In this document: positions 2,573-64,000 of the stretch, piece after piece | Layout of the letters: every line of letters starts with the position of its first letter | Numbering within the stretch: the first letter of the stretch is position 1 | Source of the DNA: an uncultured bacterium | Lineage (GTDB): Bacteria > Patescibacteriota > Minisyncoccia > Phycocordibacterales > GWA1-40-21 | DNA length: 64,000 nucleotides | Assembly: GCA_963798465.1 (NCBI GenBank) | Contig: CAWCTC010000001.1 | Location: 260,315 to 324,314 of the forward strand | Reading direction: 5' to 3' | Notes under the pieces: generated by a model | What the model was told of the DNA's origin: nothing | The model's database searches: none | The model's input: only the letters and a program-made list of their open reading frames with translations | Position numbers and translations under genes: made by a program

Positions 2573-2645
2573 TATTTTAAAGAAACATGACAAAGAAAAA
2601 CCCGGAAGCAAAAACTTCTGGGTTTTTAATTTTCTCTGAGCTTTC

Positions 2646-3262: not shown

Positions 3263-4498
3263 ATGATAACAAAAACAAGAGTTGGTAATTATTATTCTAT
3301 AGGTAAGGAGATAGAGTTAGAGTTTTTAAAAGGTGGTTCAAAAAAAGAGGACGGGTATTTTCTCTACAAAAATAATGAGAAAGTATCATTAATAAATGGT
3401 TTTTTTGGAGCAAATGCAAGTGGAAAAACTAATTTACTGAGATCAATGGTTGGTCTTATTAGGATAATGTATACGGCATATTCTCCACAGGGTATTTATC
3501 CTATGCAGGGTGTTGTTGGAGAAGTTAAGTTGTGCGAGCCAAATGCACATAAAGATTTTAAAGATAAGCCTACAAAATTGGGAGCCGATTTTTTGTTTGG
3601 TAATAATTACTATACTTATAATTTGGAAATTAAAAATGGGAACGATATAGCAAAAGAAGAGCTTTATCTCACCACTCTTAATGTGAAATCTGCAAAGCCA
3701 AAGATGGTTTTTAACCGAGTAAATTCAGTTATTACTTTTGGCCCTGAGTATAAAGAATATGAAACATATTCGATGAACATAACAATTCAAAAACACCAGA
3801 CATTTATTTCCCACCTGATTAATTTGGGAGCGAAGTTGGTTGGCGATTTCATTAACAATAGAAACTCGTTCTTTCTAAAGAATGATGGGACTGATTCAAT
3901 GCTACCGCCACAAATCGCTGTTTTAACTAGAGCTTTTGCTTTGAATTCTCTTGATAAAGAGAAAAAAGATGAATTCTTAAAAACAACCAAAGATATTATG
4001 AGCTGTTTTGATGATTCTATTGATGATTTGAAAGTTAATACTGAAAATAATAGTATATCTATTAAAGTTGCACATAAAAACTTCTTAAAGACTATTGATA
4101 TACAGCAAGAGTCAGCAGGAACAAGAGAATTATTTTGTTATATCTATGACATATTAAGTACTATTAAAAAAGGAGGTGTTGTAGTATACGATGAAATAAA
4201 TAGATATTATCATCCAGATGTAGAAGTTGCTCTAATTTCAATTTTCAAAAATCCAGAATTTAACACAAAAAATGCACAGTTATTTTTTGCTTCACATAAC
4301 CATGAGACTTTTGATTTGTTGGAGTTAGATCAGGCGTATATTATAGAAAAAATAGACTCATGTTCTTCCGTATATAAATTATCAGAAATTGAAAATTTAA
4401 AGAAAAGAGATAGTTTAAAGAAAAAATACAGGCTTGGTATGCTTGGAGGGGTTCCTGATGCAACGACTCTCGATTATAAACTTAAGCAACTCCTATAA
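3263..4498 (+). CDS. AAA_21/ABC-like ATPase, AbiLi/RloA-type (defence-associated)
   Basis: 411 aa. Walker A GANASGKT, Walker B-like VVVYDEI, FASHNHE near the C-terminus. The stop overlaps the next start (TAATG). Confidence 0.75.
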   Translation: MITKTRVGNYYSIGKEIELEFLKGGSKKEDGYFLYKNNEKVSLINGFFGANASGKTNLLRSMVGLIRIMYTAYSPQGIYPMQGVVGEVKLCEPNAHKDFKDKPTKLGADFLFGNNYYTYNLEIKNGNDIAKEELYLTTLNVKSAKPKMVFNRVNSVITFGPEYKEYETYSMNITIQKHQTFISHLINLGAKLVGDFINNRNSFFLKNDGTDSMLPPQIAVLTRAFALNSLDKEKKDEFLKTTKDIMSCFDDSIDDLKVNTENNSISIKVAHKNFLKTIDIQQESAGTRELFCYIYDILSTIKKGGVVVYDEINRYYHPDVEVALISIFKNPEFNTKNAQLFFASHNHETFDLLELDQAYIIEKIDSCSSVYKLSEIENLKKRDSLKKKYRLGMLGGVPDATTLDYKLKQLL

Positions 4499-7616: not shown

Positions 7617-7812
7617 TTTACATTATATTTTTATATGATATAATACTGGTACAACTGAATAAGAAAGTAATCTAAACTAGTAAGTAATTACTGGCATGAT
7701 GAAAAGAAAGTCGTATAAGGCATAAAAAACCCATCATGGGGTCGCCTTATACGCTATATCGGGAAACTGGTATAAGTGGCTTCGGCCACTACCCGTGATG
7801 GGCTTTTTGTTT
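7617..7812 (+). promoter_or_regulatory. Promoter plus structured leader or small RNA with alternative pairings and a terminator-like end
   Basis: TTTACA (7617-7622), 16-nt spacer, then TGaTATAAT (7636-7644). Downstream, CGTATAAGGC (7712-7721) and GTATAAG (7771-7777) can each pair with GCCTTATACG (7744-7753). There is a GTGGC-TTCG-GCCAC hairpin (7778-7791). CCCATCATGGG (7730-7740) can pair with CCCGTGATGGG (7793-7803), which is followed by CTTTTTGTTT. Confidence 0.4.
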
Positions 7813-8145: not shown

Positions 8146-8976
8146 ATGAATAATTTAGATAATTTAATAGACCTGATAGGTGAAAACGATATCGTTATTA
8201 AGGGTGTTTCTAGTGAATACCAAAAGCCAGAATTTGCTGACAGAATAAAATCTTTTTTTCGTGAAAAAAGATTCACCGTTAAAGATACAGGTGTCTCATA
8301 CCGAATGATAAATCACTGGAAAGATGTGGGGATCATTCCCGACTCTTGTTTTGATGATAAGAATCAAGATTGGGCAAAGTTCAACCTTGTGGAGCTATTG
8401 TGGCTAAAGGTAGCCAATGAATTAAGATCTTTTGGTTTACCTTTAGAAAAAATAAAGAGAGTTAAAAAAGATATTTTAATTTGGAATGAGAAACAACAAA
8501 CTTACCTAGATTTTGAGTACAGGATATACCTTTCTATAACTACTAAATCTGACCTGTTTTTATTTATCGAATCTGATGGATCTACTCAGATTCAGAGTCT
8601 TAATTTTTTCATTTTTATGAAAAATATTTTAAATAGTTTTGGGTGGAATTTTCCGAAGATGATACTGATTTCTATGAAAGATTTAGTTAAAGACTATGTC
8701 TTTATGGTTGAACGACCAGATGATATTTTATCTATCTCAAAACCAGAGATGGAGTTATTAAACAAGATAAGACTTGGAACAGGTAATAAAATTACTGTTC
8801 ATAAAAAGGATAGAAAAATATCTGATATTCTTACGTCTGATTTTATGACAGAGAATATCGATATATCAAAAGTCATGAAAAATTTAAAGGAGGAAGGTGG
8901 TAATACTGAGGTAGTTCTAAAATTAAATAATGGTAATCCAGAGTTTTTAGAGGTAAAGAGGAAAAAAAGAGTGTAG
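8146..8976 (+). CDS. Hypothetical protein with N-terminal MerR/excisionase-like HTH
   Basis: 276 aa. RFTVKDTGVSYRMINHWKDVGII resembles the MerR/HTH_17 helix-turn-helix. The remainder is unknown. Confidence 0.4.
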   Translation: MNNLDNLIDLIGENDIVIKGVSSEYQKPEFADRIKSFFREKRFTVKDTGVSYRMINHWKDVGIIPDSCFDDKNQDWAKFNLVELLWLKVANELRSFGLPLEKIKRVKKDILIWNEKQQTYLDFEYRIYLSITTKSDLFLFIESDGSTQIQSLNFFIFMKNILNSFGWNFPKMILISMKDLVKDYVFMVERPDDILSISKPEMELLNKIRLGTGNKITVHKKDRKISDILTSDFMTENIDISKVMKNLKEEGGNTEVVLKLNNGNPEFLEVKRKKRV

Positions 8977-9360: not shown

Positions 9361-10971
9361 GTGTTCAATCTTGATAACTTTATGATTAAGACAAAAATTA
9401 AACAGAATAATCCAAATAACCCCTATGAAGAGAGGACGGGTCTTGTTTATGTCCGTGTATCAAGTAAACGACAGGAGACCCAAGGAACTGGTTTACAGAG
9501 CCAAGAGGGGCGTTGTATTAAGGAACTAGAGTTAATGAAAGTTCCATATAAAGAAACCTTTCCCGATAGTTATTCAGGCGGAGGTGATTTTATGCTAAGA
9601 CCAGCGATGAGAGATATGATCGCGTATATAGATGCACACCCATACGAAAAATTCATCGTAGTATTTGATGATATTTCACGCTTTGCCCGTGATGTCGTTT
9701 ATCACATTAAACTTAGAGAGGTGTTTAGATCTCGTGATGTAATGTTAAAGTGTTTGAATTATAGCTTTGATGAAAGCGATGAAGGTTGGTATTCAGAGTT
9801 AATTCTTTCAGGAAAGGCGGAGTTAGACAGAAGACAGAATCGTAGACAAGTCATACAAAAACAAAAATCACGCCTTGAATTAGGATACTGGTCATTTGCG
9901 TCTAGAAAGCCTTATAAGATGACTAAAGACCCATTGCATGGCAATATACTCAAATTACAATATCCAGAGGCAGGTTGGCTCAAGGAAGCAATGGAAGGAT
10001 TTGCGGATGGTAGATTTATTAGAAAAATTGATGCTTGCAAATTTCTTCTCAAGAAAGGCTATTGGAAAAAACAATCTGTAGAAAAATATATAGATAATTT
10101 TTCTCTTTTATGTAAAGACGCCTTATTTGCTGGATACATCGAATATCCTGAATGGGAAGTAGAGAGGCGAAAAGGACATCATGAAGCCCTTATATCACTT
10201 GAAACATATAATCTTATTCAAAAACGTTTAAGGAATGAGGGTCTAGGAAAAAGAATTCGTGTAGATATATCGAAAGATTTTCCACTTAGGGGTTTATCTC
10301 TTTGTGCATATTGTAGTAAGCCCCTCACTGGTGCTTGGTCAAAGGGCAGGAAACAAAAACATCCATATTATTTTTGTCAGAATAAAATTTGCTTATACAA
10401 AGGAAAAGCTATTCGTAAAAAAGATATAGAAGAGAGTTTTGATAATTTACTTAAAAAACAGATTCTTAAAGGAAAAGCAGAGGTAGTCCTGAAAAGAGTT
10501 TTTGATTCTGAATGGATGGAAGAAATATCTAACTTAGAACTCTCCCAACATACCCAAGTAAAAAATAAAAAAGATCTTGAAGACCAACTTAGTGAATTGG
10601 TAAAGTTGTCTACGCGGGCCAAAGATCAATCAATTCGAAATGCTTATGAAAGGGAGATGAGGGATGTATCAGATAAGATCATTCAAATTGAGGATGATTT
10701 TCTACCTAATTTTGATACTAAGGTTCCTTATCGAACGGCTCTTGATAAAGCTACAGGTTTATTGAAAAGTCCTTATAAAGTATGGAAGGATCTTGATGTG
10801 ATAGAGCAACATAGTCTATTCTATTTTATTTTTGACACAAAAATACCCTATGACATAAAAGAAGGCTATCGAACCGATAGTATTCCAACTGCCATAAGGC
10901 TTTTTGAGGAATTTGCGACTGCAAATTCCTGTGATGTGGAGATGGGCGGAATCGAACCGCCGTGCAAATGA
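9361..10971 (+). CDS. Large serine recombinase (resolvase/invertase N-domain + recombinase + zinc-ribbon domains)
   Basis: 536 aa. GLVYVRVSSKRQ catalytic-Ser motif, Cys cluster CAYCSKPLTG...YYFCQNKIC, C-terminal coiled-coil-like region. GTG start (alternative ATG at 9382). The last codons are antisense to the tmRNA 3' end. Confidence 0.9.
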   Translation: MFNLDNFMIKTKIKQNNPNNPYEERTGLVYVRVSSKRQETQGTGLQSQEGRCIKELELMKVPYKETFPDSYSGGGDFMLRPAMRDMIAYIDAHPYEKFIVVFDDISRFARDVVYHIKLREVFRSRDVMLKCLNYSFDESDEGWYSELILSGKAELDRRQNRRQVIQKQKSRLELGYWSFASRKPYKMTKDPLHGNILKLQYPEAGWLKEAMEGFADGRFIRKIDACKFLLKKGYWKKQSVEKYIDNFSLLCKDALFAGYIEYPEWEVERRKGHHEALISLETYNLIQKRLRNEGLGKRIRVDISKDFPLRGLSLCAYCSKPLTGAWSKGRKQKHPYYFCQNKICLYKGKAIRKKDIEESFDNLLKKQILKGKAEVVLKRVFDSEWMEEISNLELSQHTQVKNKKDLEDQLSELVKLSTRAKDQSIRNAYEREMRDVSDKIIQIEDDFLPNFDTKVPYRTALDKATGLLKSPYKVWKDLDVIEQHSLFYFIFDTKIPYDIKEGYRTDSIPTAIRLFEEFATANSCDVEMGGIEPPCK

Positions 10972-11341
10972 TTGTTCCAGATATTTCTACAAAGTTTAGT
11001 TGATTTTATTTTGTCTTGCGACAAATTTAAGATTATGAACTTTAAAAAAACAAAATATTCATAATCCGATTCTCTTATTTCATTTTGCGCCGAGAAATCG
11101 CAAAATATATTCTGAAAATATTACACTTCAGACCACCGCTCAGAATCAGTGGGTGAAATGTCGCTTAGGCTAAAGCGTAAGCGAAAGTAGGAGTTGACCT
11201 CCAAAAATGGAGAAACAATACTCGCTACTTTTTGTGAAATGTTATTAGCATTTACATTTTCCTTGATAGATTTAGGAGTTCACAAGGTTGCTCTACTTTG
11301 CATATAAGAAACGGGACCAATTGTCTAGGCCGATCATCCCC
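10937..11341 (-). ncRNA. ssrA: tmRNA (SsrA)
   Basis: 5' end GGGGATGATCGGCCTAGAC. 3' end GGCGGTTCGATTCCGCCCATCTCCA. The acceptor pairs GGGGATG with CATCTCC, including a G3-U wobble (Ala identity). An internal reading frame ..ACT TTC GCT TAC GCT TTA GCC TAA (T-F-A-Y-A-L-A-stop, 11165-11188) resembles canonical tags. smpB lies next door. CCA is not encoded. Confidence 0.85.
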
Positions 11342-12304: not shown

Positions 12305-14276
12305 ATGGATATATTAAACAATAAAAAACCACCAAATAAGAAGTCATCGAATAATAAGAACAAAAACCAGAATGCAAAAGGCAATCCTCTGAATCTTTTC
12401 ACGAAGATAGCAAATGCGATCCTGATAATTCTTTTCATTTCAATTTTGTATTCCGTTATTTTTACCGGAGGAAGCAAGCCGCAGCAGATTTCAATTTCAC
12501 AGCTTGCCAATGATGTTTCATCCGGACTTGTAAAAAGCATCGATGTGCAAGGAGATAATCTTACAATCACTTACAATGCAACCGGAACGGCGACAAGCAC
12601 CGCAAGTACGACAGTAACCGCAGCACCAATAACAAAAACATCTAAAAAAGAAGAAGGTGTTGCTTTGAGCAGAAACTTTACAATTACAAAGTTTCCGCAA
12701 GACGCGCTTGACAAGGTCAATATAACTATTGAAAGCGATACCGGTTTTAGCTATTGGTTTATGAATCTTGCGCCATTTTTGATTCCGCTGATTTTTATCG
12801 GAATATTTATCTGGATAATCATGAGACAGATGAAAGGAGCAGGAGTGCAAGCGATGTCTTTTGGACAATCAAAAGCCAGAATAATTTTGCCGACAGATAA
12901 AAAACAAAGAGTGACTTTTGCCGATGTTGCCGGCGCAAAAGAAGCAAAAGAAGAGTTGACGGAAGTCGTGGACTTTTTGAAAAATCCGAAAAAGTTTCTT
13001 GATATCGGCGCAAAAATTCCGAAAGGAATACTTTTGCTTATGGGCGCGCCGGGAACAGGAAAAACTTTGCTCGCAAGAGCTGTCGCCGGGGAAGCCGGAG
13101 TCGCATTTTTCTCAATTTCCGGTTCTGAATTCGTGGAAATGTTTGTCGGAGTCGGAGCAAGCCGAGTCCGAGATTTATTCAAGATGGCAAAAAATACTGC
13201 GCCGGCAATTATTTTTATTGATGAAATAGATGCTGTCGGAAGAGTGCGCGGCGGTGGAATGGGCGGAGGAAATGACGAAAGAGAACAGACTTTGAACCAG
13301 ATTCTTGTCGAGATGGACGGCTTCGAGCCGAATGAAAAAGTTATTGTCATGGCCGCAACAAACAGACCAGATGTTCTTGATCCTGCACTTTTGAGACCGG
13401 GAAGATTTGATAGAAGAGTTGTTATAGATTTGCCGGACAGAGACGACAGAGAAGCGATTTTGAAAGTACATTCAAAAGAAAAACCATTTGCGGAAGATGT
13501 AAATTTGAGAACTATTGCCGAGAGAACGCCAGGATTTTCCGGAGCAGATTTATATTCACTCATGAACGAAGGCGCGATTCTTGCAGCTCGAGAAGGAAGA
13601 CAAAAAGTTTCTCAGTTTGATCTTGATTCGCTCAATTGAAAAAGTTATGATGGGGCCTGAAAGAAAAAGTCATATCCTTTCAAAAAAAGAAAAAGAAATT
13701 ACTGCATATCACGAAGCGGGACACGCGCTTGTTTCTTCAGTTCTTCCATTCGCCGATCCAGTTCATAAGATTTCAATTATTGCTCGCGGACGAGCCGGCG
13801 GATACACTTTGCATTTGCCTTTTGAAGACAAAAGATTGCAATCAAAGAAAGAATTTATGGATGATATTGCAGTGTCGCTTGGCGGATATGTTACGGAGAA
13901 AATGGTTTTCGGCGATATCACAACCGGTCCTTCAAATGATTTGCAAGTTTCAACGGCTCTTGCGCGAGATATGGTTACAAAATACGGAATGTCGGAAAAA
14001 TTGGGACCGGTGGCGCTTGAAGGCGAAGGCGGAAGAGCGATGTTCGGCAACGGAGTGAATGACAAAGAATATTCGGATAAAATAAATGCGGAAATTGATG
14101 CAGAAGTTTCGGCAATAATGAATGGCAATATGAAAAGAGCGGAAAAAATAATCACGGATCATAGAAAAGCTCTTGATGCGATTGCAAAAAGATTGATTGA
14201 AACGGAAACGATTGAAAGGGAAGAGTTTGAAAAGATTCTTTTGGCAAATGGAATTAATGCCGAAGAAAAAAGATGA
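12305..14276 (+). pseudogene. ftsH: ATP-dependent zinc metalloprotease FtsH, split by an apparent 1-nt insertion (possibly a sequencing artefact)
   Basis: ORF 12305-13639 carries the TM segments and the AAA module ([30 protein letters not shown]). ORF 13581-14276 carries the HEAGHA zinc site. The frames join in GATCTTGATTCG (13619-13630). Removing one base gives ..KVSQFDL(D/I)[11 protein letters not shown].., which is colinear with FtsH. Confidence 0.93.
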
Positions 14277-15674: not shown

Positions 15675-16051
15675 GAAGTGGGGAATTAGATGTTATCTCA
15701 GTTGATATTTTAACTTTAATTTTGAAGGAGGGCAACAATTTTTATTGTAGTCACAGATAATTTTCTGCTGAAAATTTGCGCGAGCTTTGCACTTGATTTG
15801 CTAACTCACTTCGTTCATAAGAAAATCTACGCCCCGCCTCGCGCCGTCGTGCTCCGTCTCGTACATGTAGCCCATTATTTAATTGTCTAGATTCGGCTAT
15901 TACATAGCCAGGTATTTTTCAATCTTATATATCATTTAGATGAATTTGTAGTCAAAAATAATTTCCTCGTCGACACTCGGAAATTTTTTCGACCCTGCCT
16001 CGTCTGTTTTGCTTGCTAGCAAAACATGACTCCGGCTCGTACATGTATAAG

Positions 16052-16078: not shown

Positions 16079-16086
16079 TATCGATG

Positions 16087-16160
16087 TACGCCCGCCTAGA
16101 TTCGAACTAGGGACCCCGAAGGTATAAGCTTCGTGCTCTAACCAGCTGAGCTACGGGCGT
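16087..16160 (-). tRNA. tRNA-Ile (anticodon UAU)
   Basis: The reverse complement folds as ACGCCCG-TA-GCTC-AGCTGGTTA-GAGC-A-CGAAG-CTTATAC-CTTCG-GGGTC-CCTAG-TTCGAAT-CTAGG-CGGGCGT-A. The anticodon loop C-T-TAT-A-C gives UAU. CCA is not encoded. Confidence 0.8.
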
Positions 16161-21994: not shown

Positions 21995-23516
21995 ATTTTG
22001 CGAAAAAGCAAGTAATTACAACGTTTTTTTTATTTTTTTAAAAAACGTATATTTTTCCTATCTAAAACGGAAAAAATCATTGCGTTGTCATAATTATTGT
22101 TCTATAATTGGGTTTGTAAAAGAGTTGCGCAGTTTAGAAGTACAGCTGGTTTTTTTGTTAGGGAATATATAGTCCGTTTAAAATGTACGCATACAATTTT
22201 TTAAAAAAACAGTCTTTTTAGGGCTATGTTCAGTAGCGCTGTTATTTTGCTTTTCGGTGACGAATGTTTTTGCTGCAGGAGTTCCTACTATTTTGAGTTT
22301 TCAAGGAAGGCTTACGGATTCTTCCGGCAATCTTTTAGGAGGTTCAGGAACAAATTATTATTTTAAATTTTCCATCTGGAATAACTCGACTATCGGTTTA
22401 GGGTCACAGCTTTGGCCTGCAGTCGCTCCGTCAGTTTTTTCTACGGCAGTACGACAAGGAGTTTTTAATGTAAATATCGGAGACACTTCAGCGGGATATC
22501 CCGATGTCTTGGATTATAATTTCAATACGAGTGTTCCAGTTTATTTGCAGATAGAAGTTTCTTCCGATGGAATAAATTTCCAAACTCTCGGTCCGAGACA
22601 AGAAATCACGGCATCCGCATTCGCCCAATTATCCGGAGCTGTGAGTGGAACGGGACAATCTTCTTTCGGAACAACGACTCCGATAAATAATTCCGTTGTC
22701 AGTATAGTTTCAACTTCAACAAATTCCACTGCGCTTACGATAAGAGGCTTGGTCGGACAAATTGCAAATCTTTTTCAGGTTCAAAATTCTTCGGGTGCGA
22801 ATGTATTTTCAATCGATAATAACGGTTCAATAATTTCGAGTGGAACAATTGTTGCAACAAATATTTCCGGGACTTCAACTGGAATAAATACCGGCGACGA
22901 ATCTTCATCATCAATCAGAACAAAACTCGGAGCCGCATCATCGACAAATGACGGATATCTTTCAGCAGGAGATTGGACGAATTTCAACAGCAAAGTTTCA
23001 GGAACAGGGAATACTGGCGAACTTTCATATTGGACTGACTCAAACACCTTGGCAAGTATCGGCCCTGGAATTGACGGAATGTTTTTGAGAGCTTCATCAA
23101 CTTCTCCAACAGGTTTTGATTGGACTTTAGCAAGCAGCAGTGGAGGTTCTGGCGTTTGGGGAGCAATTACAGGAACTCTTTCAAATCAAACAGATTTACA
23201 AAATGCCCTTGATGCAAAACTTTCCACGACTTCAGCGGCGGCAATTTATTTGAGTCAAATTTCAGCATCATCGACTTATGTTTCTTTTGATTATGCAACA
23301 AATACTTTTGCGACAATTTCTTCTCTCGGCTCATATGCCACAACCGGAGCACTTTCAAATTATTACTTGGCTTCAAATCCATCAAACTACATTTCAAATA
23401 TTTCCGGACAGAATCTTGCAACCGCCGACAATTCAATTTCCGGCTTCATCACCGCAACTGCTCTCATTCCATATCTTTCCACCACATCCGCCGCTTCAAC
23501 ATATCTTCCTCTTTCA

Positions 23517-25406
23517 GCTTCAACATCTCTTGCATATATTCCTCTCGCATCAAGTTCAATCTTCCTTTCAACAACTTCCGCATCAGCCCTATATGTTTCC
23601 ACTTCATCTCTTGCAAGCACTCTGCTCGGATATCTTTCAACAACATCGGCATCAGCAAATTACGTTTCAACTTCATCTCTGACTTCAACTCTCGCTTCAT
23701 ATCTGACTACTGCATCTTCAACTGCGACATATCTCACGATCCTATCCGCCGCTTCAACATATCTTCCTCTTTCAGCTTCAACATCTCTTGCATATATTCC
23801 ATTTGCATCTTCATCTTTGTATTTATTGAATAGCGCTTCAACATCTCTTGCATATATTCCTCTCGCATCAAGTTCAATCTTCCTTTCAACAACTTCCGCA
23901 TCAGCCCTATATGTTTCCACTTCATCTCTTGCAAGCACTCTGCTCGGATATCTTTCAACAACATCGGCATCAGCAAATTACGTTTCAACTTCATCTCTGA
24001 CTTCAACTCTCGCTTCATATCTGACTACTGCATCTTCAACTGCGACATATCTCACGATCCTATCCGCCGCTTCAACATATCTTCCTCTTTCAGCTTCAAC
24101 ATCTCTTGCATATATTCCATTTGCATCTTCATCTTTGTATTTATTGAATAGCGCTTCAACATCTCTTGCATATATTCCTCTCGCATCAAGTTCAATCTTC
24201 CTTTCAACAACTTCCGCATCAGCCCTATATGTTTCCACTTCATCTCTTGCAAGCACTCTGCTCGGATATCTTTCAACAACATCGGCATCAGCAAATTACG
24301 TTTCAACTTCATCTCTGACTTCAACTCTCGCTTCATATCTGACTACTGCATCTTCAACTGCGACATATCTCACGATCCTATCCGCCGCTTCAACATATCT
24401 TCCTCTTTCAGCTTCAACATCTCTTGCATATATTCCATTTGCATCTTCATCTTTGTATTTATTGAATAGCGCTTCAACATCTCTTGCATATATTCCTCTC
24501 GCATCAAGTTCAATCTTCCTTTCAACAACTTCCGCATCAGCCCTATATGTTTCCACTTCATCTCTTGCAAGCACTCTGCTCGGATATCTTTCAACAACAT
24601 CGGCATCAGCAAATTACGTTTCAACTTCATCTCTGACTTCAACTCTCGCTTCATATCTGACTACTGCATCTTCAACTGCGACATATCTCACGATCCTATC
24701 CGCCGCTTCAACATATCTTCCTCTTTCAGCTTCAACATCTCTTGCATATATTCCATTTGCATCTTCATCTTTGTATTTATTGAATAGCGCTTCAACATCT
24801 CTTGCATATATTCCTCTCGCATCAAGTTCAATCTTCCTTTCAACAACTTCCGCATCAGCCCTATATGTTTCCACTTCATCTCTTGCAAGCACTCTGCTCG
24901 GATATCTTTCAACAACATCGGCATCAGCAAATTACGTTTCAACTTCATCTCTGACTTCAACTCTCGCTTCATATCTGACTACTGCATCTTCAACTGCGAC
25001 ATATCTCACGATCCTATCCGCCGCTTCAACATATCTTCCTCTTTCAGCTTCAACATCTCTTGCATATATTCCATTTGCATCTTCATCTTTGTATTTATTG
25101 AATAGCGCTTCAACATCTCTTGCATATATTCCTCTCGCATCAAGTTCAATCTTCCTTTCAACAACTTCCGCATCAGCCCTATATGTTTCCACTTCATCTC
25201 TTGCAAGCACTCTGCTCGGATATCTTTCAACAACATCGGCATCAGCAAATTACGTTTCAACTTCATCTCTGACTTCAACTCTCGCTTCATATCTGACTAC
25301 TGCATCTTCAACTGCGACATATCTCACGATCCTATCCGCCGCTTCAACATATCTTCCTCTTTCAGCTTCAACATCTCTTGCATATATTCCATTTGCATCT
25401 TCATCT
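23517..25406 (+). repeat. Tandem repeat, 318-bp unit x ~5.9, apparently 100% identical, in-frame (106 aa)
   Basis: Unit starts fall at 23517, 23835, 24153, 24471, 24789 and 25107. The identical antisense shadow ORFs spaced 318 nt apart in the ORF track confirm perfect identity. Confidence 0.95.
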
Positions 25407-25965
25407 CTCTACTATCTCAACTCAAACCCAGCAGGCTATATCACTTCCACTTCAACTGCATTCATTCCATTTGCATCAAGTTCTCTTTATCTTCTAAATT
25501 CAGCCAGCACAAGTTTGGCATATATTCCGATAGCATCTTCTTCATTATTTGCAACTTCGGGAACACTTTTGAGCTATATGACTTACAGTTATGCTTCTTC
25601 CACCTATGCAAGCACGACTTATGTCAATAATACATTTTTGAAATTATCTGCTTCAACATCTCTTGCTTATATTCCATTTGCATCTTCATCTCTCTACTAT
25701 CTCAACTCAAACCCAGCAGGCTATATCACTTCCACTTCAACTGCATTCATTCCATTTGCATCAAGTTCTCTTTATCTTCTAAATTCAGCCAGCACAAGTT
25801 TGGCATATATTCCGATAGCATCTTCTTCATTATTTGCAACTTCGGGAACACTTTTGAGCTATATGACTTACAGTTATGCTTCTTCCACCTATGCAAGCAC
25901 GACTTATGTCAATAATACATTTTTGAAATTATCTGCTTCAACATCTCTTGCTTATATTCCATCGG
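25366..25965 (+). repeat. Tandem repeat, 285-bp unit x ~2 (95 aa) inside the giant gene
   Basis: TCATCTCTCTACTATCTCAACTCAAACCC recurs at 25401 and 25686. The protein segment ASTSLAYIPFASSSLYYLNSNPAGYITS...NNTFLKLS is duplicated. Confidence 0.9.
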
Positions 25966-28469
25966 CCAGCTCGTCTTTGTATCTTTTAGTTTCTGCTAGC
26001 ACTTCATTGCCTTATATTCCTTTCGCTTCTTCAAGTTTGTATGCAACAGGAACAAACTACTGGTCTGCAAATGGAAATAATATTTATAATAATAATATAG
26101 GAACTGTTGGCATCGGAACTACAACGGCATCTGATTTGCTAGGCATTGAAGGTGGTGGCTTAGGTATTTATGCTCCTAGCACTAATGCAGCAAAATTTGC
26201 TGGAAATATAGAACCTGGCGATGGCGACCTTCTTGTAACTACCGGCAGGTCTTTAACCATTATGTCAAATGTCAATAGTTCAATCACTCCTGTTTTTGAA
26301 GCCAGTGTTACAGGCGGTGTATCTATTGGTTCGTATGTGAATAGTGTAAATATGTATTCTGTGCCAGCAAATAGTCTTATCCTTCCTGGAAGCATCGGTA
26401 TAGGAACTTCAACTCCTTCGCAAGCTCTGACAGTTATTGGAAATATTGCTTTGTCAGGAGCGATTTTTGACAGCACGAACGCTTCGGGAACTGCGGGAAT
26501 GGTTTTATCTAGCACTGGAACATCTACTTTGTGGATTCCTGCGCCATCAGGTTCATCCCAGTGGACAACAAATGGAACTTCAATTTATTATAATGGGGGG
26601 AAATGTCGGAATAGGAACAACAACACCCATAGCAGCTTTGGCTATTGCTAGCGCAACTGATACCCCATATGTTCTTGCAGTATACGGAGGCAATGGAAGT
26701 TCAACAGCAGGAAGTTCAGTTATTATGAATACTGGCAACGGCGGTCAAGTCGGTTTAGTCGGAGCACCCGGTGGAAATTTCTCATTCACAACCGGAATCG
26801 GAGGTTCTGCCGTCTCAGGCGAATCATCTGGTGCAAATGGAGGTGATTTTCTAGTTACAACAGCTGCTGGAGGTAATTCAACAGGACATCAAGCAGGTGG
26901 ACGAGGAGGCAACATGACAATTTTACTTGGCAATGGAGGTACTGGTTATGGCGGAGGAATCGGAGGATCATACTCAGTTACTGCAGGCAATGGTAATACT
27001 GGAACTTCCAATGGAGCTGGTGGAAGTATAAATCTTATCGCAGGAAATTCTCCTGGCGGAATTTCTGGCAATATAGTTTTGACTCCAGGCAATAATGGAA
27101 CAAATGCAACCGGCAGCGTAATAATTTCAACTCTGGCAGGACTCGGCAGTGTCGTCACACTCGGAGCAAATGGAGCTCTTACCGCTATTTCTTCAACCTC
27201 ACTATCAAGCTTATATGTAAGTCCAAGCCATGTGGATAATCTTGCGTATAGATATAACACTATTCCTTTGAATCAATCCGTCACAAATATTTCTATTATA
27301 TCTACCACTACTGTTGCACAGGTTGCAAACTACGGAGCATGGGACGGCCAACATTTATGGGTATCACAATTTGCTGCACATTCAATTACAGAACTGAATG
27401 AAAATGGAGTTGTCATGGCCACTTATACTTTTGCAAGCAGTATTGAACCAATTCAGTTGGCATACGATGGAAGATATATTTGGGTAGCCAGCGCGGATAC
27501 ATATGGAAATTTGATAAAGTTCGATCCAACAACAGGAGCTTCATCTACGACTCTTATGAATCCAGGAGGCACAGGCTCTGGCGGTATCCAAGGAATTCTT
27601 TGGGATGGAAGCAAATTGTGGATAGGTCTTGCAGCTTTGAATGATGTTTTGAGATTTAATACTATAACTGGATCAGTTGAGGCAACATCCACAGGAGATA
27701 CAAACGTAAACGGTTTGGCCATGATGGATATTCCTGAAAACGGAGGAGTGACAAGATATATTTTTGCGGCTTGTTCTAACTTCATAGCAAAAATAAAGGG
27801 AAGCACCATGGTCTCATCACTTATTGGTACTCCATCAAACACATACCGTATAGCGACAGACGGAGATTTTCTTTATGGAGCTTCTTATTTGGCAAGTTCA
27901 ACAGATGCAACTGTAGAAAAATATGATGCAAGAAGCGGTACAAAAATTGTAAGTTGGAATTCCGGAACTCTTCTGAACACAATTGCATTTGATGGAAGAT
28001 ATATCTGGGTATCGGGAGATGATCAAACCACAACCGTTCATGACAGAACTTCAGGAGCTATTGTTGCATCTATTCCAAATAGCGGAAAATCCGATCTTAT
28101 TTTTGATGGTACATATATGTGGAGTATTAGCAGTGCGGGCTTTGTGAGGAAATTAGGTATCGGTGAACAAATGGGCAATTTAAAAGTTGCACAGGGCATG
28201 AGTTTGATGGATGAGAACAATAATGTAGGACTCCTTCTCTTGGCAACTTCTACCGGTAGTAGCTATATGATGAGTAATTTTGGAATTGGGACAACTTCGC
28301 CGACCGCACCTCTCACTGTTACAAATTCGACAACGACTGGCGTGCTAGTTTCCATTTCTTCTCCGAATGCTCTGGCCACAACAGGCAGTTTGCTTTCTTT
28401 GGCGGCAGATGGCGCGACGACTCCAACAGGTGTTATGACTTTGAGCGCGAATGGTTTAACTTCTGGAAA

Positions 28470-58712: not shown

Positions 58713-60144
58713 ATGTCTATTGATTTAAAAAATCTCACAATCAGAAAAGCGCATGAAGCTCTTGTAAAAGGAGATTATTCTGCCGTTGATTTGGCCAAGG
58801 CATATCTTGAACAAATAAAAAAAACAGAAAAAGATATTCACGCGTATCTTGAAGTTTTCGACGATGTGATTGATCAGGCAAAAGTTGCCGACGAAATATT
58901 AAAAAGCGGAAAAGCAACTTTGCTCACAGGTATTCCGATTGCAGTGAAAGATAATATTTTAATCAAAGGAAGAATCGCATCTTCTGCTTCAAAAATTTTG
59001 GAAAATTATAAAGCGACTTATGATGCCACCGTCATTGAAAAATTAAAAAAAGAAGGAGTGGTTTTTATCGGCAGGACAAATATGGATGAATTTGCCATGG
59101 GCGGTTCCACGGAAAATTCTGCATATGGTCCGACAAAAAATCCATTTGATTTGGAAAGAGTTCCGGGCGGTTCTTCGGGCGGTTCGGCAGCAGCTGTCGC
59201 ATCGGATGAAGCTCTTGTCGCACTCGGTTCAGATACCGGAGGTTCAATCCGACAGCCGGCAAGCTTTTGCGGACTTGTCGGACTCAAGCCGACATATGGA
59301 GCGGTTTCAAGATACGGAGTCATGGCCATGGGTTCATCGCTTGACCAGATCGGAACGTTCGGAAAAACTGCCGATGATGCCGAAATACTTTTCAATGCAA
59401 TCAAAGGTAACGACAAAATGGACAGCACGACTTTGCCGGATAAAAAAATTGAAGAAAATTTTTCCGGTAAAGAAATTAAAAATCGGAGTGCCTAGAGATT
59501 TTTTAAATATCGGCGGAATAGATGCGGATGTCGTGAAAAATTTCAAAGAATCCTTGGAAAAATTAAAAAAACTCGGACATGAAATCATAGATATCAAATT
59601 GCCGAATTTGAAATATTCTTTGGCGGTTTATTATGTGATTGTTCCAGCTGAAGTTTCCTCAAACATGGCGCGTTTTGACGGCATGAGATACGGAAAAAGA
59701 GTTTCCGGTGCAAACGGAATAGAAGATTATTTTCTTTCAAGGCAAGCCGGACTTGGCAGGGAAGTTAAAAGAAGAATTATTCTCGGAACTTATGTTTTAT
59801 CGTCAGGATATTACGATGCATATTACAACAAAGCGAATATTGTTCGTGAAATAATTAAAGAAGATTACAAAGTTGCGTTTAAGGATGTGGATATAATCGC
59901 GACCCCGACAGCTCCGAATGTTGCGTTTAAAATCGGCGAGAAAGTCGATGATCCTCTGCAAATGTATCTTGAAGATATTTTTACTGTGCCGATAAATCTT
60001 GCTGGAGTTCCGGGAATTTCTGTTCCATCAGGAATAAAAAAAATCGGCGAAAAGGATTTGCCGATAGGAATTCAGTTTGTTGCTGATCATGGAAGGGAAG
60101 ACAAGCTTTTTGCCATAAGCAAGGATTTCTTGGGAGAAAAATAA
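58713..60144 (+). pseudogene. gatA: Glu/Asp-tRNA amidotransferase subunit A, split by one extra base in an A5 run (possibly an artefact)
   Basis: ORF 58713-59495 carries the amidase signature [27 protein letters not shown] 59086-60144 continues with ..KIGVPRDF... The frames meet at ATTAAAAATCGG (A-run 59478-59482). With A4 the reading is ..[13 protein letters not shown].. Confidence 0.92.
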
Positions 60145-61224: not shown

Positions 61225-61298
61225 GTCGACGTAGCTCAGTTGGCTAGAGCATAGCACTCATAAAGCTAAGGTCGGTGGTTCGATTCCACCCGTCGACA
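61225..61298 (+). tRNA. tRNA with anticodon CAU (elongator Met or Ile2; not distinguishable by eye)
   Basis: GTCGACG-TA-GCTC-AGTTGGCTA-GAGC-A-TAGCA-CTCATAA-AGCTA-AGGTC-GGTGG-TTCGATT-CCACC-CGTCGAC-A. CCA is not encoded. Followed by a 13-bp hairpin (61301-61329). Confidence 0.85.
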
Positions 61299-61329
61299 CA
61301 ATGACAAAAACTGTTTCAGTTTTTGTCAT

Positions 61330-61444
61330 GTCGACGAGAAAGCAGTTGACTGCTTTCGTGGTGGAATTGAAAGACTTTTCCTTATCGAACGAATTGAGAT
61401 GGAAAAGTACCTGGCGACGTCGTCGCCGATTCCACCCGTCGACA
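61330..61444 (+). ncRNA. tRNA-mimic foldback element X1 (acceptor and T-stem of the preceding tRNA-CAU, no anticodon arm, ~70-nt insert in the T-loop)
   Basis: GTCGACG-A-[GAAAGCAG-TTGA-CTGCTTTC]-GT-GGTGGAATTG-AAA-[GACTTTTCC-19 nt-GGAAAAGTAC]-CT-[GGCGAC-GTC-GTCGCC]-GATTCCACC-CGTCGAC-A. The last 19 nt are identical to the tRNA 3' end. Confidence 0.45.
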
Positions 61445-61501
61445 CATTGCGAAAGATTGTAGAAATATTATTTTTCTGTTATTCTTTCGCTTGTTAATAA
61501 T

Positions 61502-61575
61502 GCGATCGTAGCTCATTTGGTTAGAGCGCTCCCCTGTCACGGGAGAGGTAGTGGGTTCGAATCCCATCGGTCGCG
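61502..61575 (+). tRNA. tRNA-Asp (anticodon GUC)
   Basis: GCGATCG-TA-GCTC-ATTTGGTTA-GAGC-G-CTCCC-CTGTCAC-GGGAG-AGGTA-GTGGG-TTCGAAT-CCCAT-CGGTCGC-G. Confidence 0.9.
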
Positions 61576-61613
61576 CAAAATAAAAAATTGCTGAAAGGCG
61601 ATTTTTATTTTGC

Positions 61614-61762
61614 GCGACCGAAGCAAGCAAACTGCTTTGCTTGCGTTGGGATTCGAACAGCGGAACGATATTTTTTCAGCAGAAAAAATGAGTGAGCTGG
61701 TGCCCAGACTTTTCTGAGCGACGGCGAAGAAAAAGTCGAGGGAGAAATTCCCATCGGTCGCG
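61614..61762 (+). ncRNA. tRNA-mimic foldback element X3 (acceptor/T-stem of tRNA-Asp)
   Basis: GCGACCG-A-[GCAAGCAAA-CTGC-TTTGCTTGC]-GT-TGGGA...[ATTTTTTC-AGCA-GAAAAAAT]...[GACTTTTCT-12 nt-AGAAAAAGTC]...TCCCA-T-CGGTCGC-G. Preceded and followed by the same ~45-nt spacer CAAAATAAAAAATTGCTGAAAGGCGATTTT. Confidence 0.4.
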
Positions 61763-61797
61763 CAAAATAAAAAATTGCTGAAAGGCGATTTTATTAT

Positions 61798-61889
61798 GCG
61801 ACCGATGGGGTTCGAAAGACTTTTCCGTATCGAACGAAGTGAGATGGAAAAGTATCTGCCGATACAGTCGGCGAATCTCATCAATCGCC
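61798..61889 (+). ncRNA. tRNA-mimic foldback element X2
   Basis: GCGACCG-ATGGGGTTCG-AAA-[GACTTTTCC-19 nt-GGAAAAGTAT]-CT-[GCCGA-TACAG-TCGGC]-GAATCTCAT-CAATCGC-C. The core is shared with X1. The small hairpin has a different sequence but keeps its pairing. Confidence 0.4.
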
Positions 61890-62047
61890 AACAGATTACT
61901 ATTATCAACAGACTATTTTTTAACAGCTAGGAACTGCGATTTTTGGGCGTTAAAAATCTATACATAGCAATTATTATTTGTTATAATTTATATGACGTTT
62001 TTGGGAAAGAAAACGGGTTTTTATGTAATCGTTTTTTAATTCAAAAA

Positions 62048-64000
62048 ATGATAGTTCCAATGGATAAAAGAATAAGAAGCCATAAGTTTTTTAATATAAA
62101 AACAACTGTTTTTGCTGTCTTTATTTTGTCTATTTTTTCTTTTGCAGGAATTGCATCTGCCGTACTTTATCCTCCAGGAGCAACTTTAAATCCAACATGT
62201 TTACCAACGGATACAAATTGTGATGTTCAACTGATTACAAATGTTTACACGAACGGTCCGCTTTCTGGCACTGGTGCTTCGACTTCTCCGCTTACTATTT
62301 TACAAGCATCAAGCACGTCCGACGGATATCTTTCTTCAACGGATTGGAATATTTTTAATGATAAGTTGTCGACAACAAGCATGGATGCGTATCTTTCAAC
62401 GACATCTGCAGCGGGAACTTATCTTACGCAAGTGCAAGCTGCATTCACATATGTAACACAACCTTGGGTTTACACAAATTTTCCTACATTTACATATGCA
62501 TCCTCAACTTTTGCAACAATTTCTTCTCTGAATGGATATCTTTCAACCACAACTGCCTCAACAACATATTTGAGTTTAGCTGCGGCAACATCAACTTATG
62601 TTTCTTTCAATTATGCCTCAACAACTTATTTAATGTTATCTTCCGCTTCAGCTGATTATGTTTCCACTTCCACTGCGTCTTCAACATACGCAAAACTAGC
62701 CGGTGCAGTCTTTACAGGAAATATTTCAGCTCTAAATTTCTCAGGAACATCCACAGGAGTAAATACCGGAGATGAATCTTCATCAACAATCAGAACAAAA
62801 TTGGGAAGTGCTTCATCAACAAATGATGGATATCTTTTAGCTTCTGATTGGACAATTTTTAATGACAAAGTTTCTACATCTTCGGCAAACTCTCTTTATG
62901 TAACTTATGATTATGCTTCAACAACATTCCCAAGTTTTGAATATGCATCAAATACTTTTCTTACAATTAATAATGCTATAGCGGATTACATTTCCACTTC
63001 AACTCTTTCATCAACTCTCTCTGCGTATCTTTCTACAACATCGGCAGCCACAGATTATGTTTCAACTTCAACTCTGACAAACAATTATCCATCATTCACA
63101 TATGCATCAGGAACATATTACTTCGCATCAAATCCAAGCGGATATATTTCTTCAACAACAAACGCCCTTACAAACTATCCAACTTATAGTTATGCTTCCT
63201 CAACTTTCGCTTTCACAACTTATGTAAATAATAATTTTCCAACATTCACTTATGCCACAAATACTTTTGCAACAATTTCATCTCTGGGTGCCTATCTTTC
63301 AACAACATCCGCTTCCACTACCTACTTGTCAATCGTAAACGCTGCCAACCAATATCCTTCATTTGCATATGCGTCAAACACTTATGCGACATCAGGATCA
63401 ATCGCAAGTTTTGTAACTTACACATATGGAACTTCCACATATCTTTCACAACTTCAAGCTTCAGCTGATTATCTTTCAACATCAACCGCATCAAGCACAT
63501 ACGCAAAACTTTCAGGTGCAGATTTTACAGGTCCTATATCAGCTTCAAACTTCTCCGGAACTTCAACAGGATCAAACTCAGGAGATGTAACTTTAGTAAA
63601 TAATATAAATGGTCTTACAATTTCAGGTCAAGCTTTGACTCTCGGACTTTCAGGAACATCTGCAACAGGAACTCTTTCATCAACCGATTGGAATACATTC
63701 AACAATAAACTTTCTACATCATCTGCATCATCAACATATCTTTCAATTGCAAATGCAACTTCCAGTTACATGACATTTGGTTACGCTTCATCAACTTACG
63801 CTTCGACAACTTGGGTGAGTGCAACATTCATTCCACTTTCAGCTTCAACTTCACTTTCATATATTCCTCTAGCATCTTCTTCACTTTACTATCTCGCATC
63901 AAATCCTGCAGGATATATTTCTTCAACAACTGCATCACTTACAAATTACCCAACTTACTCATATGCCTCAAGTACTTTTGCATCCACCTCATATGTTCTC
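62048..64000 (+). CDS. Second giant S/T/A-rich tail-fibre-like surface protein (5' part; runs off the window)
   Basis: An open frame from ATG 62048 (or 62060) runs to the window edge. It is absent from the ORF track because it has no stop. Signal-like FAVFILSIFSFAGIASA. It shares GTSTG(V/I)NTGDESSS.IRTKLG.ASSTNDGYL...DW..FN.KVS and the Y-x-S repeats with the gene at 22.3 kb. Confidence 0.8.
   Translation, partial: MIVPMDKRIRSHKFFNIKTTVFAVFILSIFSFAGIASAVLYPPGATLNPTCLPTDTNCDVQLITNVYTNGPLSGTGASTSPLTILQASSTSDGYLSSTDWNIFNDKLSTTSMDAYLSTTSAAGTYLTQVQAAFTYVTQPWVYTNFPTFTYASSTFATISSLNGYLSTTTASTTYLSLAAATSTYVSFNYASTTYLMLSSASADYVSTSTASSTYAKLAGAVFTGNISALNFSGTSTGVNTGDESSSTIRTKLGSASSTNDGYLLASDWTIFNDKVSTSSANSLYVTYDYASTTFPSFEYASNTFLTINNAIADYISTSTLSSTLSAYLSTTSAATDYVSTSTLTNNYPSFTYASGTYYFASNPSGYISSTTNALTNYPTYSYASSTFAFTTYVNNNFPTFTYATNTFATISSLGAYLSTTSASTTYLSIVNAANQYPSFAYASNTYATSGSIASFVTYTYGTSTYLSQLQASADYLSTSTASSTYAKLSGADFTGPISASNFSGTSTGSNSGDVTLVNNINGLTISGQALTLGLSGTSATGTLSSTDWNTFNNKLSTSSASSTYLSIANATSSYMTFGYASSTYASTTWVSATFIPLSASTSLSYIPLASSSLYYLASNPAGYISSTTASLTNYPTYSYASSTFASTSYVL

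Follow-up and report, generated by a model that had tools for sequence, protein, structure and literature searches.

A large family of structured modules, each enclosed by an inverted and a direct copy of a tRNA 3' end, at tRNA and tmRNA genes of Patescibacteria

The window, the whole stretch of 64,000 nucleotides analysed here (contig CAWCTC010000001.1, assembly GCA_963798465.1), is part of a low-GC chromosome of the Patescibacteria type, which includes ligA, gatC/gatA and the gene of transfer-messenger RNA (tmRNA). Close to its right end, the genes for tRNA-Met(CAU) (61225..61299, + strand; ARAGORN, Rfam tRNA 68.8 bits) and tRNA-Asp(GUC) (61502..61576, + strand; ARAGORN, Rfam tRNA 66.8 bits) are followed by structured elements, which we call modules: X1 behind tRNA-Met, and X3 and X2 behind tRNA-Asp. 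Homologues of the gene flanking this locus are labelled Candidatus Paceibacterota in protein searches. Each module is bounded by two frames derived from the 3' end of its parent tRNA gene, an inverted copy on the 5' side and a direct copy on the 3' side, which enclose a cargo. The first-pass annotation had placed three tRNA-mimic foldback elements here, and every feature it described was recovered by repeat search, folding and tRNA calls. X1-X3, together with three copies behind tRNA-Ile in the same window, belong to a large modular family at the 3' flanks of tRNA and tmRNA genes in Patescibacteria (Paceibacteria-like members of the candidate phyla radiation, CPR).

X1 is a complete module with a cargo of type A (61330..61444, + strand). 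Its predicted minimum free energy is -54.2 kcal/mol (z = -7.9), and it scores 114.7 bits (E ~1e-24) with the covariance model R1 described below. The 5' end, GTCGACG, is the complement of the acceptor 3' strand of tRNA-Met and forms an acceptor-like stem with the 3' end of the module (61330-61336 / 61437-61443). An A at 61337 and a side hairpin of the CUGC class (61338-61357) separate this stem from a T-like stem with an extension (61360-61368 / 61428-61436). The cargo follows, composed of the junction GAAAG (61369-61373), the core hairpin (61374-61408), ACCU (61409-61412) and a small GC hairpin (61413-61427). The module ends with the discriminator (61444), and its terminus is an exact 20-nt copy of the tRNA-Met 3' end, CGATTCCACCCGTCGACACA (repeat D3, 61427-61446), in line with the identity first noticed. 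The same structure was predicted independently by RNAalifold from 18 diverse copies. Between tRNA-Met and X1 lies a spacer hairpin (61301..61329, + strand) with 13-bp arms and a 3-nt loop (inverted repeat I15, 100% complementary). Its left arm resembles the original flank at the empty site of a related locus (L006), and the spacer hairpin therefore belongs to a palindrome composed of the tRNA 3' end, its flank and their reverse complement.

X3 (61612..61764, + strand; z = -5.7; R1 31.9 bits, E 4e-5 to 2e-4) has a cargo of a different type, C. The spacer between tRNA-Asp and X3 (61577..61611, + strand) is a degenerate terminator-like hairpin of an A-tract and a T-tract, and forms the centre of a perfect 20-bp palindrome, formed with the tRNA-Asp 3' end, whose two arms are 100% complementary (inverted repeat I2, 61567-61586 / 61602-61621). 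The inverted copy of X3 (61612-61621 and 61647-61657) is split by a side hairpin with a CUGC loop (61623-61644). It is followed by the cargo (61658-61748) and the direct copy (61749-61764; all + strand), which ends in TCCCATCGGTCGCGCA. The identity to the tRNA-Asp locus runs on into the spacer, giving a 44-nt direct repeat without mismatches (D2, 61562-61605 = 61749-61792, 100%), so the repeat of the spacer described earlier is real. Part of it forms the interval between X3 and X2 (61765..61797, + strand).

X2 (61798..61893, + strand; R1 75.9 bits) is again of type A, and differs from X1 and X3 in missing the side hairpin and in having decayed frames. It comprises an inverted copy (61798-61816) that matches the tRNA-Asp 3' end with 82% complementarity (inverted repeat I1), a core (61814-61854), a small hairpin (61858-61872) and a degenerate direct copy (61873-61893; all + strand). 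X1 and X2 have in common a 64-nt block with 84% identity (D1), as had been recognized from the letters, and its 37-nt core occurs exactly twice in the 64 kb, where no occurrence is expected. On the + strand, X1, X3 and X2 all fold into acceptor-like and T-like helices without D or anticodon arms (z = -7.9, -5.7 and -5.3, respectively), as proposed initially. The folds of the - strand are weaker for all three.

A second cluster lies behind the gene for tRNA-Ile with the rare anticodon UAU (16086..16160, - strand; ARAGORN, Rfam). Reading of the sequence revealed three modules on the - strand (15745..16045): Y1a (~16045-15950), which matches the pattern of type-B cargo; Y1b (15977-15881), a decayed type-A module (R1 21 bits, E = 0.012); and the B-like Y2 (~15870-15745). 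Over 62 nt, Y1a shares 82% identity (E = 1e-11) with a module behind tRNA-Asp in another genome (L001/L002). Reading of the flanks and searches with R1 found no module behind the initiator tRNA, tRNA-Ser and tmRNA genes of the window. ARAGORN calls only the five true tRNAs in the window and no module, and X1-X3 do not match the Rfam tRNA model RF00005 even at E <= 10.

The modules of different tRNAs have a common anatomy. In the direction of the tRNA, the order is spacer hairpin, inverted copy, cargo and direct copy. The inverted copy represents the last ~20-22 nt of the neighbouring tRNA, from the T loop as far as 1-2 nt past the discriminator, and is usually interrupted by the hairpin with the CUGC loop. 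In a complete module such as X1, its first segment is the 7-nt complement of the acceptor 3' strand. The second segment is an A, a hairpin of 8-10 bp and GU, placed exactly at the boundary between the acceptor and T stems. The third segment complements the 3' strand of the T stem and the T loop in full (GGTGG-AATCGAA), and extends the inverted copy beyond the stems. The last segment is the direct copy, which starts at C56 of the T loop and proceeds through the 3' strands of the T and acceptor stems to the discriminator plus 1-2 nt. The 5' frame is a genuine inverted copy and not the 5' half of a tRNA, because it carries the reverse complement of the T loop (AATCGAA and ATTCGAA) and because, at the positions of acceptor G-U pairs, it follows the reverse complement of the 3' strand in six of seven informative cases. 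The tRNA-Asp of the window is among these cases (GCGACCG, not GCGATCG). Since the spacer itself is a hairpin, the tRNA 3' end, the spacer and the inverted copy make up one long palindrome.

The conservation of the fold was assessed at two levels. A plain MAFFT alignment of 18 diverse copies, not fitted to any model, was analysed by RNAalifold and contains five helices with compensatory changes in 25 of 34 pairs: the acceptor-like stem, the side hairpin, the T-like stem with its extension, the core stem and the small 3' hairpin. The acceptor-like and T-like helices measure 7 + 5 (+4) bp. The position of the T loop is occupied by the paired extension AAUCG/CGAUU and a three-way junction bearing the cargo. 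The covariance model R1 was built from this alignment, and reaches only 19 bits on the reverse strand. In a larger, model-fitted alignment of 112 distinct copies from other genomes, 92% of the cells are paired, versus 67% in shuffled and ~45% in slid controls; both partners have changed in 911 cells (280 after shuffling), and all 34 modelled pairs exhibit compensatory change. The initial impression of hairpins that vary in sequence and keep their pairing thus holds for the family. Pairing is most complete in the core stem (99.5% of cells), the side hairpin (97.8%), where covariation is heavy, and the small 3' hairpin (93%), followed by the T extension (92%), the T-like stem (86%) and the acceptor-like stem (75%). 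Because the copies were collected through one type-A pattern, the invariance of the core stem is partly imposed and other cargo types are undercounted. The single-stranded motifs AACUGCUU in the side-hairpin loop, ACCY after the core stem and GUA in the loop of the small hairpin lie outside the search pattern and are conserved as well. The apex of the core loop reads C-GA-NN-NNN-N'N'-GA-G in 64 of 98 distinct loops, and its NN positions can pair in 58 of the 64 (shuffle mean 38, maximum 45). From its sequence, the apex resembles a tandem G-A motif with a mini-hairpin on top.

The family was delineated by a metagenome scan with the type-A core pattern GAAAGACTTTTCC-N15-32-GGAAAAGTA, which located at least 120 loci. 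The pattern has 131 matches in all the collected sequences, 93 of them no more than 130 nt downstream of a tRNA on the same strand, mostly at 30-110 nt. The linked tRNAs represent at least 19 amino-acid types (Ala, Arg, Asn, Asp, Cys, Gln, Glu, Gly, His, Ile, Leu, Lys, Met, Pro, Ser, Thr, Trp, Tyr and Val). Of the other matches, the majority belong to composite arrays as a second or third module, or are located behind tmRNA genes (L071, L089) or an intron-split tRNA. The latter (L093 2723-3024, - strand) is interrupted by a group I intron and was missed by ARAGORN, and still has a module behind it. A few matches are orphans, and about six are chance matches within coding regions. Two orphans, with Gly-like (L024, ~1790-1976) and Tyr-like (L060, ~130-540) frames and no upstream tRNA, each stand directly behind a shared 30-nt promoter-like sequence, TTGAAA-17-TA(C/T)AAT. 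R1 gave 120 hits, of which 87 face the 3' end of a same-strand tRNA and one that of a tRNA on the opposite strand.

The 3' frame is identical to the upstream tRNA over 17-20 nt in most copies. Among 86 bystander tRNAs in the same contigs, ~30 have at least one frame feature and 13 have at least two. A repeated tRNA 3' segment is present downstream of 48 of the 169 tRNAs in the collected loci, at a spacing of 86-314 nt that contains no open reading frames (ORFs). Copies within a contig are not more similar to each other than copies from different contigs, nor are pairs with the same anticodon more similar than those with different anticodons (p = 0.65); both comparisons are probably saturated at ~60% identity. 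By heuristic calls, 26 of 81 modules are preceded and 11 of 81 are followed by a terminator-like hairpin, and the family thus does not have a uniform transcription-unit design. The core pattern had no match in 2.9 million viral contigs. A narrow pattern run over a genome collection found the sister species only and, because it was too narrow, contig names and protein labels are the only guide to the taxonomic range.

The family is not in Rfam 15. At the gathering threshold, the window and 14 loci matched only tRNA, tmRNA, LOOT RNA and group I intron models, and matches of X1-X3 and of an array with three cargoes at E <= 10 or E <= 1 were at chance level. A literature search for tRNA-like and structured RNAs in CPR, Patescibacteria and Parcubacteria, of incomplete coverage, returned no description of the family, and a prior description is possible. 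Several specific identities were considered and rejected. The curated covariance models of small self-cleaving ribozymes, YrlA, tmRNA and the IS605/ISC guide RNAs of Rfam gave no match. The three-way junction recalls a hammerhead, from whose consensus it differs, on inspection by eye, in lacking a CUGAUGA box and in the spacing of GAAA. Kissing of the CUGC loop with GCAG loops of type-B and type-C cargo fits X3 and is not general, as type-A modules are without such a partner. A small protein-coding gene does not explain the core, which lies in different frames of two overlapping ORFs in X1 and X2, 68 and 39 nt from their starts, and varies mainly at compensating stem positions. TIGR arrays, known from CPR bacteria and phages, consist of regular 36-nt dual-spacer units next to a Tas gene with a Nop domain (PMC12045711). 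The module units are irregular (86-314 nt) and tRNA-linked, and have no Tas-like gene adjacent to them at the loci examined. The LOOT RNA in the window (7669-7790) is unrelated to the modules.

The cargo can be assigned to at least three types. Type A, found in X1, X2 and Y1b, is composed of a long hairpin, ACCY and a small hairpin with a GUA loop. Type B has the consensus CGGAG-hairpin-GAGUCGGGGUCG-hairpin-UGACC and is represented by 20 distinct copies, including Y1a and the sister-strain module behind tRNA-Asp; its frames are often only 3-6 nt long. Type C is represented by X3, which aligns over its full length with a module behind tRNA-Val (L107), the single-stranded blocks being conserved and the hairpins different. 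Composite arrays begin with type B or C and end with type A (tRNA-Asp of the window, L107, L010, L017, L053 and L075). The order C then A is thus found behind different tRNAs, Asp and Val, in different organisms (window 61577-61893; L107 160-620). One tandem array (L085) contains three copies. A sub-module, CCUAAUUUUCUUGAGCGAAGCGAUUAGAAAAUGG..., is common to L107 and to the type-B module of the sister strain (L002), and the modules are mosaics. In the locus L054 (2299-5109), two type-A modules, both framed by the 3' end of tRNA-Ser(GCU), enclose genes for a DNA methyltransferase and a restriction-enzyme-like protein and one ORF of unknown function. This 2.7-kb gene island is therefore framed in the same way as a module. 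Distances from tRNA to repeat did not point to an autonomous version of the element, as the sole outliers are a second tRNA-Gly (L083) and the restriction-modification insertion in L054.

Orthologous tRNA arrays, fetched through homologues of the upstream gene encoding 240 amino acids, demonstrate that modules come and go. A sister strain with 98% protein identity (L001/L002/L003) contains X1, altered at a single base. The same tRNA-Asp is followed there by another spacer, another side hairpin and a longer cargo of another type, and X2 is missing (L002). The relatives L004 and L005 have no modules at all, and in L006 type-A modules follow the initiator tRNA and tRNA-Asp but not tRNA-Met. In L008, the core stem of the module behind the initiator tRNA covaries (GGCUUUCCG/CGGAAAGC), and tRNA-Asp on the - strand is followed by a perfect palindrome of the tRNA 3' end, a terminator and the reverse complement of that end, with no cargo (4150-4215), which may be a minimal or residual form. 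Alignment of the interval from tRNA-Met to tRNA-Asp identified a clean 146-nt indel bounded by the 20-nt repeat, with empty sites in three relatives. The indel and the cargo swap establish that modules are gained, lost and replaced while their surroundings barely change. Both of the outcomes that the first-pass annotation had named as telling, further copies at other loci and variable occupancy of orthologous ones, were thus obtained.

The frames behave differently from the hairpin and the cargo. Of 37 well-preserved modules, 22 have a direct copy that starts at C56 of the T loop. The outer end of the direct copy varies between modules and lies mostly 1-6 nt and occasionally 31-92 nt beyond the acceptor strand. 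Past the acceptor, the inverted copy pairs above background at the discriminator and the nucleotide after it, and at background further out. The inner junctions lie within the palindromic T-loop sequence TTCGAA, and CGA(A) is present on either side of the cargo. The 3' frame deviates from the parent tRNA in 20% of acceptor cells and 8.5% of T cells, and complementarity of the 5' frame to the tRNA is lost at the same rates. Judged by these equal rates and by the rarity of compensation, the frames seem to be perfect at birth and to drift afterwards. Comparison of the sequences indicates that the hairpin and cargo are maintained while the frames drift.

We hypothesize, at a probability of roughly 50%, that the modules are cassette-like tRNA-trailer RNAs, whose frames would originate from duplication of the tRNA 3' end at the DNA level and would provide the transcript with an acceptor/T-like helix that serves its processing. 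We infer that the modules are transcribed, processed, bound by protein and installed, possibly in the following way. Transcription would follow the tRNA direction, with the modules as trailers of the tRNA or, occasionally, under promoters of their own. Pairing of the frames would yield the acceptor/T-like helix of 7 + 5 + 4 bp. This helix could enable RNase P, RNase Z and exonucleases, possibly with the CCA-adding enzyme, or else RNase III, to excise a stable RNA of ~100-150 nt. The apical three-way junction would present the cargo, the putative functional part, probably to a protein. Installation would generate the frames at the DNA level, perhaps through a template switch or through priming within the T-loop palindrome. 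Loss would occur by recombination between the direct repeats and exchange through flanking homology, giving rise to strain swaps and tandem stacking. The observations in favour of such a tRNA-trailer RNA are the co-orientation with the tRNA, the excess of G-U pairs, the location of the side hairpin at the acceptor/T junction and the boundary at the discriminator plus 1-2 nt. They support that part of the first-pass annotation which regarded the elements as small RNAs processed by RNase P and RNase Z. Its term tRNA mimic is justified for the acceptor-like and T-like helices and overstated otherwise, since T loop, D arm and anticodon arm are missing.

More tentatively, an element of a new kind, a small cargo of RNA or DNA, may install itself behind whatever gene has a tRNA-like 3' end, build a mimic of the acceptor and T arms from inverted and direct copies of the last ~20 nt of its target, and hijack the transcription and processing of the host tRNA. 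Such target-templated self-framing, with its junctions in the T-loop TTCGAA, would endow Patescibacteria with an exchangeable repertoire of small RNAs on tRNA scaffolds.

Several observations weigh against the tRNA-trailer RNA. The acceptor-like stem, the presumed processing helix, is the least paired of all. The bias on the tRNA-sense strand towards G-U (136 cells) over A-C (73 cells; p = 1.6e-5), which would speak for RNA, comes from the model-fitted alignment and has to be read with this caveat. The T loop, normally important for recognition by RNase P and the CCA-adding enzyme, is absent from the modules. The terminator-like hairpin between tRNA and module in 26 of 81 cases would restrict co-transcription. 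The frames do not show the maintenance of a helix under selection: the 5' frame fails to complement the tRNA as often as the 3' frame deviates from it, and at cells changed in the 3' frame it keeps its match to the tRNA in 61 of 84, with only ~13-16 compensated. In X3 and L021, the inverted repeat continues through the discriminator into the spacer or the encoded CCA, as a DNA palindrome does. The loci examined revealed neither a partner protein nor an installation enzyme. The evidence pulls in opposite directions: the position of the side hairpin follows a logic at the level of RNA, and the uncompensated drift and the run-on into the flank follow one at the level of DNA.

The closest functional relatives of the modules are processed RNAs that borrow tRNA features and functional trailers of bacterial tRNAs. 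The tRNA-like mascRNA and menRNA are released by RNase P and RNase Z from the 3' ends of MALAT1 and NEAT1 and receive a CCA end (PMC8457004, PMC11693755). The modules resemble them in placing a tRNA-like acceptor end on a non-tRNA transcript, for which excision by tRNA enzymes is here a proposal. mascRNA is a eukaryotic, single-locus mimic of the full cloverleaf including the T loop, whereas the modules have no T loop, D arm or anticodon arm, are copied from each neighbouring tRNA and are multicopy, and their processing is a prediction. Of the mascRNA-type features, the acceptor-like stem with a free discriminator end stacked on a T-like stem is present in the modules; the T loop and elbow are not. 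In tmRNA, the tRNA-like domain has a true T loop and an analogue of the D loop, and the body exits at the position of the anticodon stem. The modules are comparable in having an acceptor stem on a T-type stem, no anticodon arm and the rest of the molecule emerging from the tRNA-like part. They differ in that the body replaces the T loop, and the Rfam tmRNA models do not match them.

Murine gammaherpesvirus 68 encodes tRNA-linked pre-miRNAs, in which a small structured RNA is located directly behind a tRNA, as in the modules. The dicistronic tRNA-snoRNA genes of plants, as cited in PMC12045711 (its references 66-67), have the same layout. Units of both kinds use the tRNA promoter, are released by RNase Z at a processing site belonging to the real tRNA and contain no tRNA-derived frame; in contrast, each module has its own inverted and direct copy of the tRNA end. 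The 3' external transcribed spacer of the Escherichia coli glyW-cysT-leuZ transcript is a sponge of small RNAs. It is a functional RNA in a bacterial tRNA trailer and in this respect likened to the modules; unlike them, it is a single locus that acts by linear base pairing, with no repeated family and no foldback of the tRNA end. This spacer is discussed in PMC7815308. The 5' frame, finally, is reminiscent of retroelements in that it complements the last ~18-22 nt of a specific tRNA, in L021 including the encoded CCA. Primer-binding sites of long terminal repeat (LTR) retroelements are complementary to a tRNA 3' end in this manner. The modules differ from such sites in being interrupted by a hairpin and paired internally, and have no reverse transcriptase, LTRs or coding capacity.

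In genomic behaviour, the modules are closest to tRNA-targeting integrative elements and structured intergenic repeats. The main alternative is that they are purely selfish, non-autonomous DNA elements similar to miniature inverted-repeat transposable elements (MITEs) or attC sites, with no RNA function. The hairpin and cargo, perhaps as folded single-stranded DNA, would be recognized by a recombinase or transposase encoded elsewhere, the target would be triplicated in direct, inverted and direct orientation, and the fixed orientation would result from directional insertion. We consider this rather unlikely as an alternative to an RNA function; the two are mutually compatible. It would account for frames that are perfect at birth and then decay independently and without compensation, for the inner junctions in TTCGAA with CGA(A) flanking the cargo and a sharp left boundary at C56, for the inclusion of non-tRNA flank in the repeats of X1 and X3, and for empty sites, cargo swapping and tandem arrays. 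Structure-specific recombination sites of the attC type covary too. Like MITEs, repetitive extragenic palindromic (REP) sequences and bacterial interspersed mosaic elements (BIMEs), Correia elements, Rickettsia palindromic elements and attC, the modules are small, non-coding, abundant and palindromic, polymorphic for presence, and conserved in secondary structure above sequence.

The comparison with these repeats has its limits. Terminal inverted repeats of the MITE type belong to the element and are alike in all copies, whereas the inverted repeats of the modules are those of each local tRNA 3' end and differ from copy to copy, and the modules have a fixed orientation relative to the tRNA. 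The core sites R''/R' of attC (RYYYAAC ... GTTRRRY) are absent from alignment A1, where the ends are tRNA-specific, and there are no cassette ORFs. No transposase-encoding relative was detected among the ~130 loci or in viral contigs, a search that did not extend to whole genomes, and the 2.9 million viral contigs contain no copy. An autonomous copy was not encountered either: the spacing in the 48 tRNAs stays at 86-314 nt, and the outlier encodes restriction-modification genes and no transposase. Further points against a purely selfish element are that copies within a contig are not more alike than those between contigs, that G-U exceeds A-C on the tRNA-sense strand, that the side hairpin is placed at the acceptor/T junction, which is meaningful only in a folded tRNA-like strand, and that some copies reside behind promoter-like sequences without a tRNA. 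The foldback mobile element of the first-pass annotation is thus borne out by frames born perfect and left uncompensated, empty sites, cargo replacement and tandem arrays, and lacks an enzyme or autonomous copy in our searches. It and the processed small RNA each capture a part of the evidence, and neither is proven.

An improbable explanation is that the modules act in cis, in the maturation or termination of the tRNA 3' end, and that the cargo is incidental. A long stem formed by the inverted copy, with either the 3' end of the tRNA itself or the direct copy as its partner, would be cut by RNase III or block RNA polymerase or exonucleases. The perfect 20-bp palindrome at tRNA-Asp (I2), the cargo-free palindrome behind tRNA-Asp in L008, the terminator-like character of about a third of the spacers and the closer match of the 5' frame to the tRNA's own 3' end than to the 3' frame of the module agree with such a role. 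Pairing of the tRNA 3' end with the trailer would, however, unfold the tRNA, and close relatives (L004) process the same tRNAs without a module. The best conservation and covariation are found in the hairpin and cargo and not in the stem, arrays stack, and modules also occur without a tRNA.

It is very improbable that the modules are attL/attR scars of integrative elements or prophages at tRNA 3' ends. Integrases reportedly target the segment from the T loop to the 3' end of tRNA and tmRNA genes, leaving attL/attR repeats (an account ascribed to Williams, 2002). The direct repeats D2 and D3 have this classic footprint, the same segment is duplicated directly downstream of an intact gene, tmRNA genes are also used, and in the window a serine recombinase gene abuts the tmRNA gene. 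Unlike attachment sites, however, the modules enclose no integrase or island, add an inverted copy and a conserved hairpin in every unit, and combine one cargo with tRNAs of at least 19 amino-acid types and with tmRNA, whereas an integrase has one attachment site. The units of 86-314 nt hold no gene remnants, covariation indicates that the structure is maintained, and no viral contig contains a copy. Stacked att remnants, suggested by the first-pass annotation, are accordingly disfavoured, and this explanation is largely refuted. Decayed tandem duplicates of tRNA genes, which would share the 3' ends identical to the neighbouring tRNA, are refuted by the inverted orientation of the 5' frame, a reverse complement of the 3' strand including the T loop with which six of seven G-U cases agree, and are opposed by the conserved non-tRNA interior common to all tRNA types and by the absence of a tRNA call from ARAGORN and Rfam. 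Each known class tested fails on at least one defining feature, and none of the systems compared is built from an inverted and a direct copy of its individual target.

Other features of the window and of related loci were noted. A large serine recombinase ORF with Resolvase and Zn_ribbon_recom domains (9361-10971, + strand) ends inside the 3' end of the tmRNA gene (10934-11341, - strand), which by its sequence suggests an integrated element at ssrA; the LOOT RNA (7669-7790) and an ORF of the MerR family (8146-8976) are located in the same stretch. Just downstream of the module array at tRNA-Asp, a very long ORF with Ser/Thr/Tyr repeats and no Pfam match (62060-64000, + strand) extends out of the window. 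gatA is split into two overlapping frames (58713-60144), while L002 has an intact gene of 476 amino acids, and ftsH is split into an AAA/FtsH_ext ORF and a Peptidase_M41 ORF (12305-14276); these frameshifts point to indel errors of the assembly or to pseudogenes. An extreme GC skew of -0.49 was found at 24001-26000, inside a giant ORF (22257-26651). Upstream of tRNA-Asp in L006 (4380-4470) and L008 (4290-4375), there are partial copies of the tRNA-Asp 5' end (gcggtcgtagc...) with hairpins, and elements associated with tRNA 5' ends may also exist. In L007, long hairpin-rich non-coding stretches with mini-hairpins of the GCGAAGC type surround the initiator tRNA (790-1160 and 1290-1680), and R1 has weak hits at 801-919 (- strand) and 2617-2762 (+ strand).

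The covariance models and hundreds of natural variants are a resource for structural and biochemical work on these elements. For genome annotation, the direct copies of tRNA 3' ends are features that can be mistaken for att sites or tRNA fragments. The family makes three questions testable: how a sequence becomes framed by an inverted and a direct copy of its target; whether bacteria have natural tRNA scaffolds that express and stabilize small RNAs, a device whose precedents so far lie in engineering and in a few eukaryotic and viral examples; and which partners bind the conserved cargo domains. If the proposed nature of the modules is correct, a large share of the tRNA genes in a major bacterial radiation would bear structured RNA cassettes that have so far gone unrecognized.

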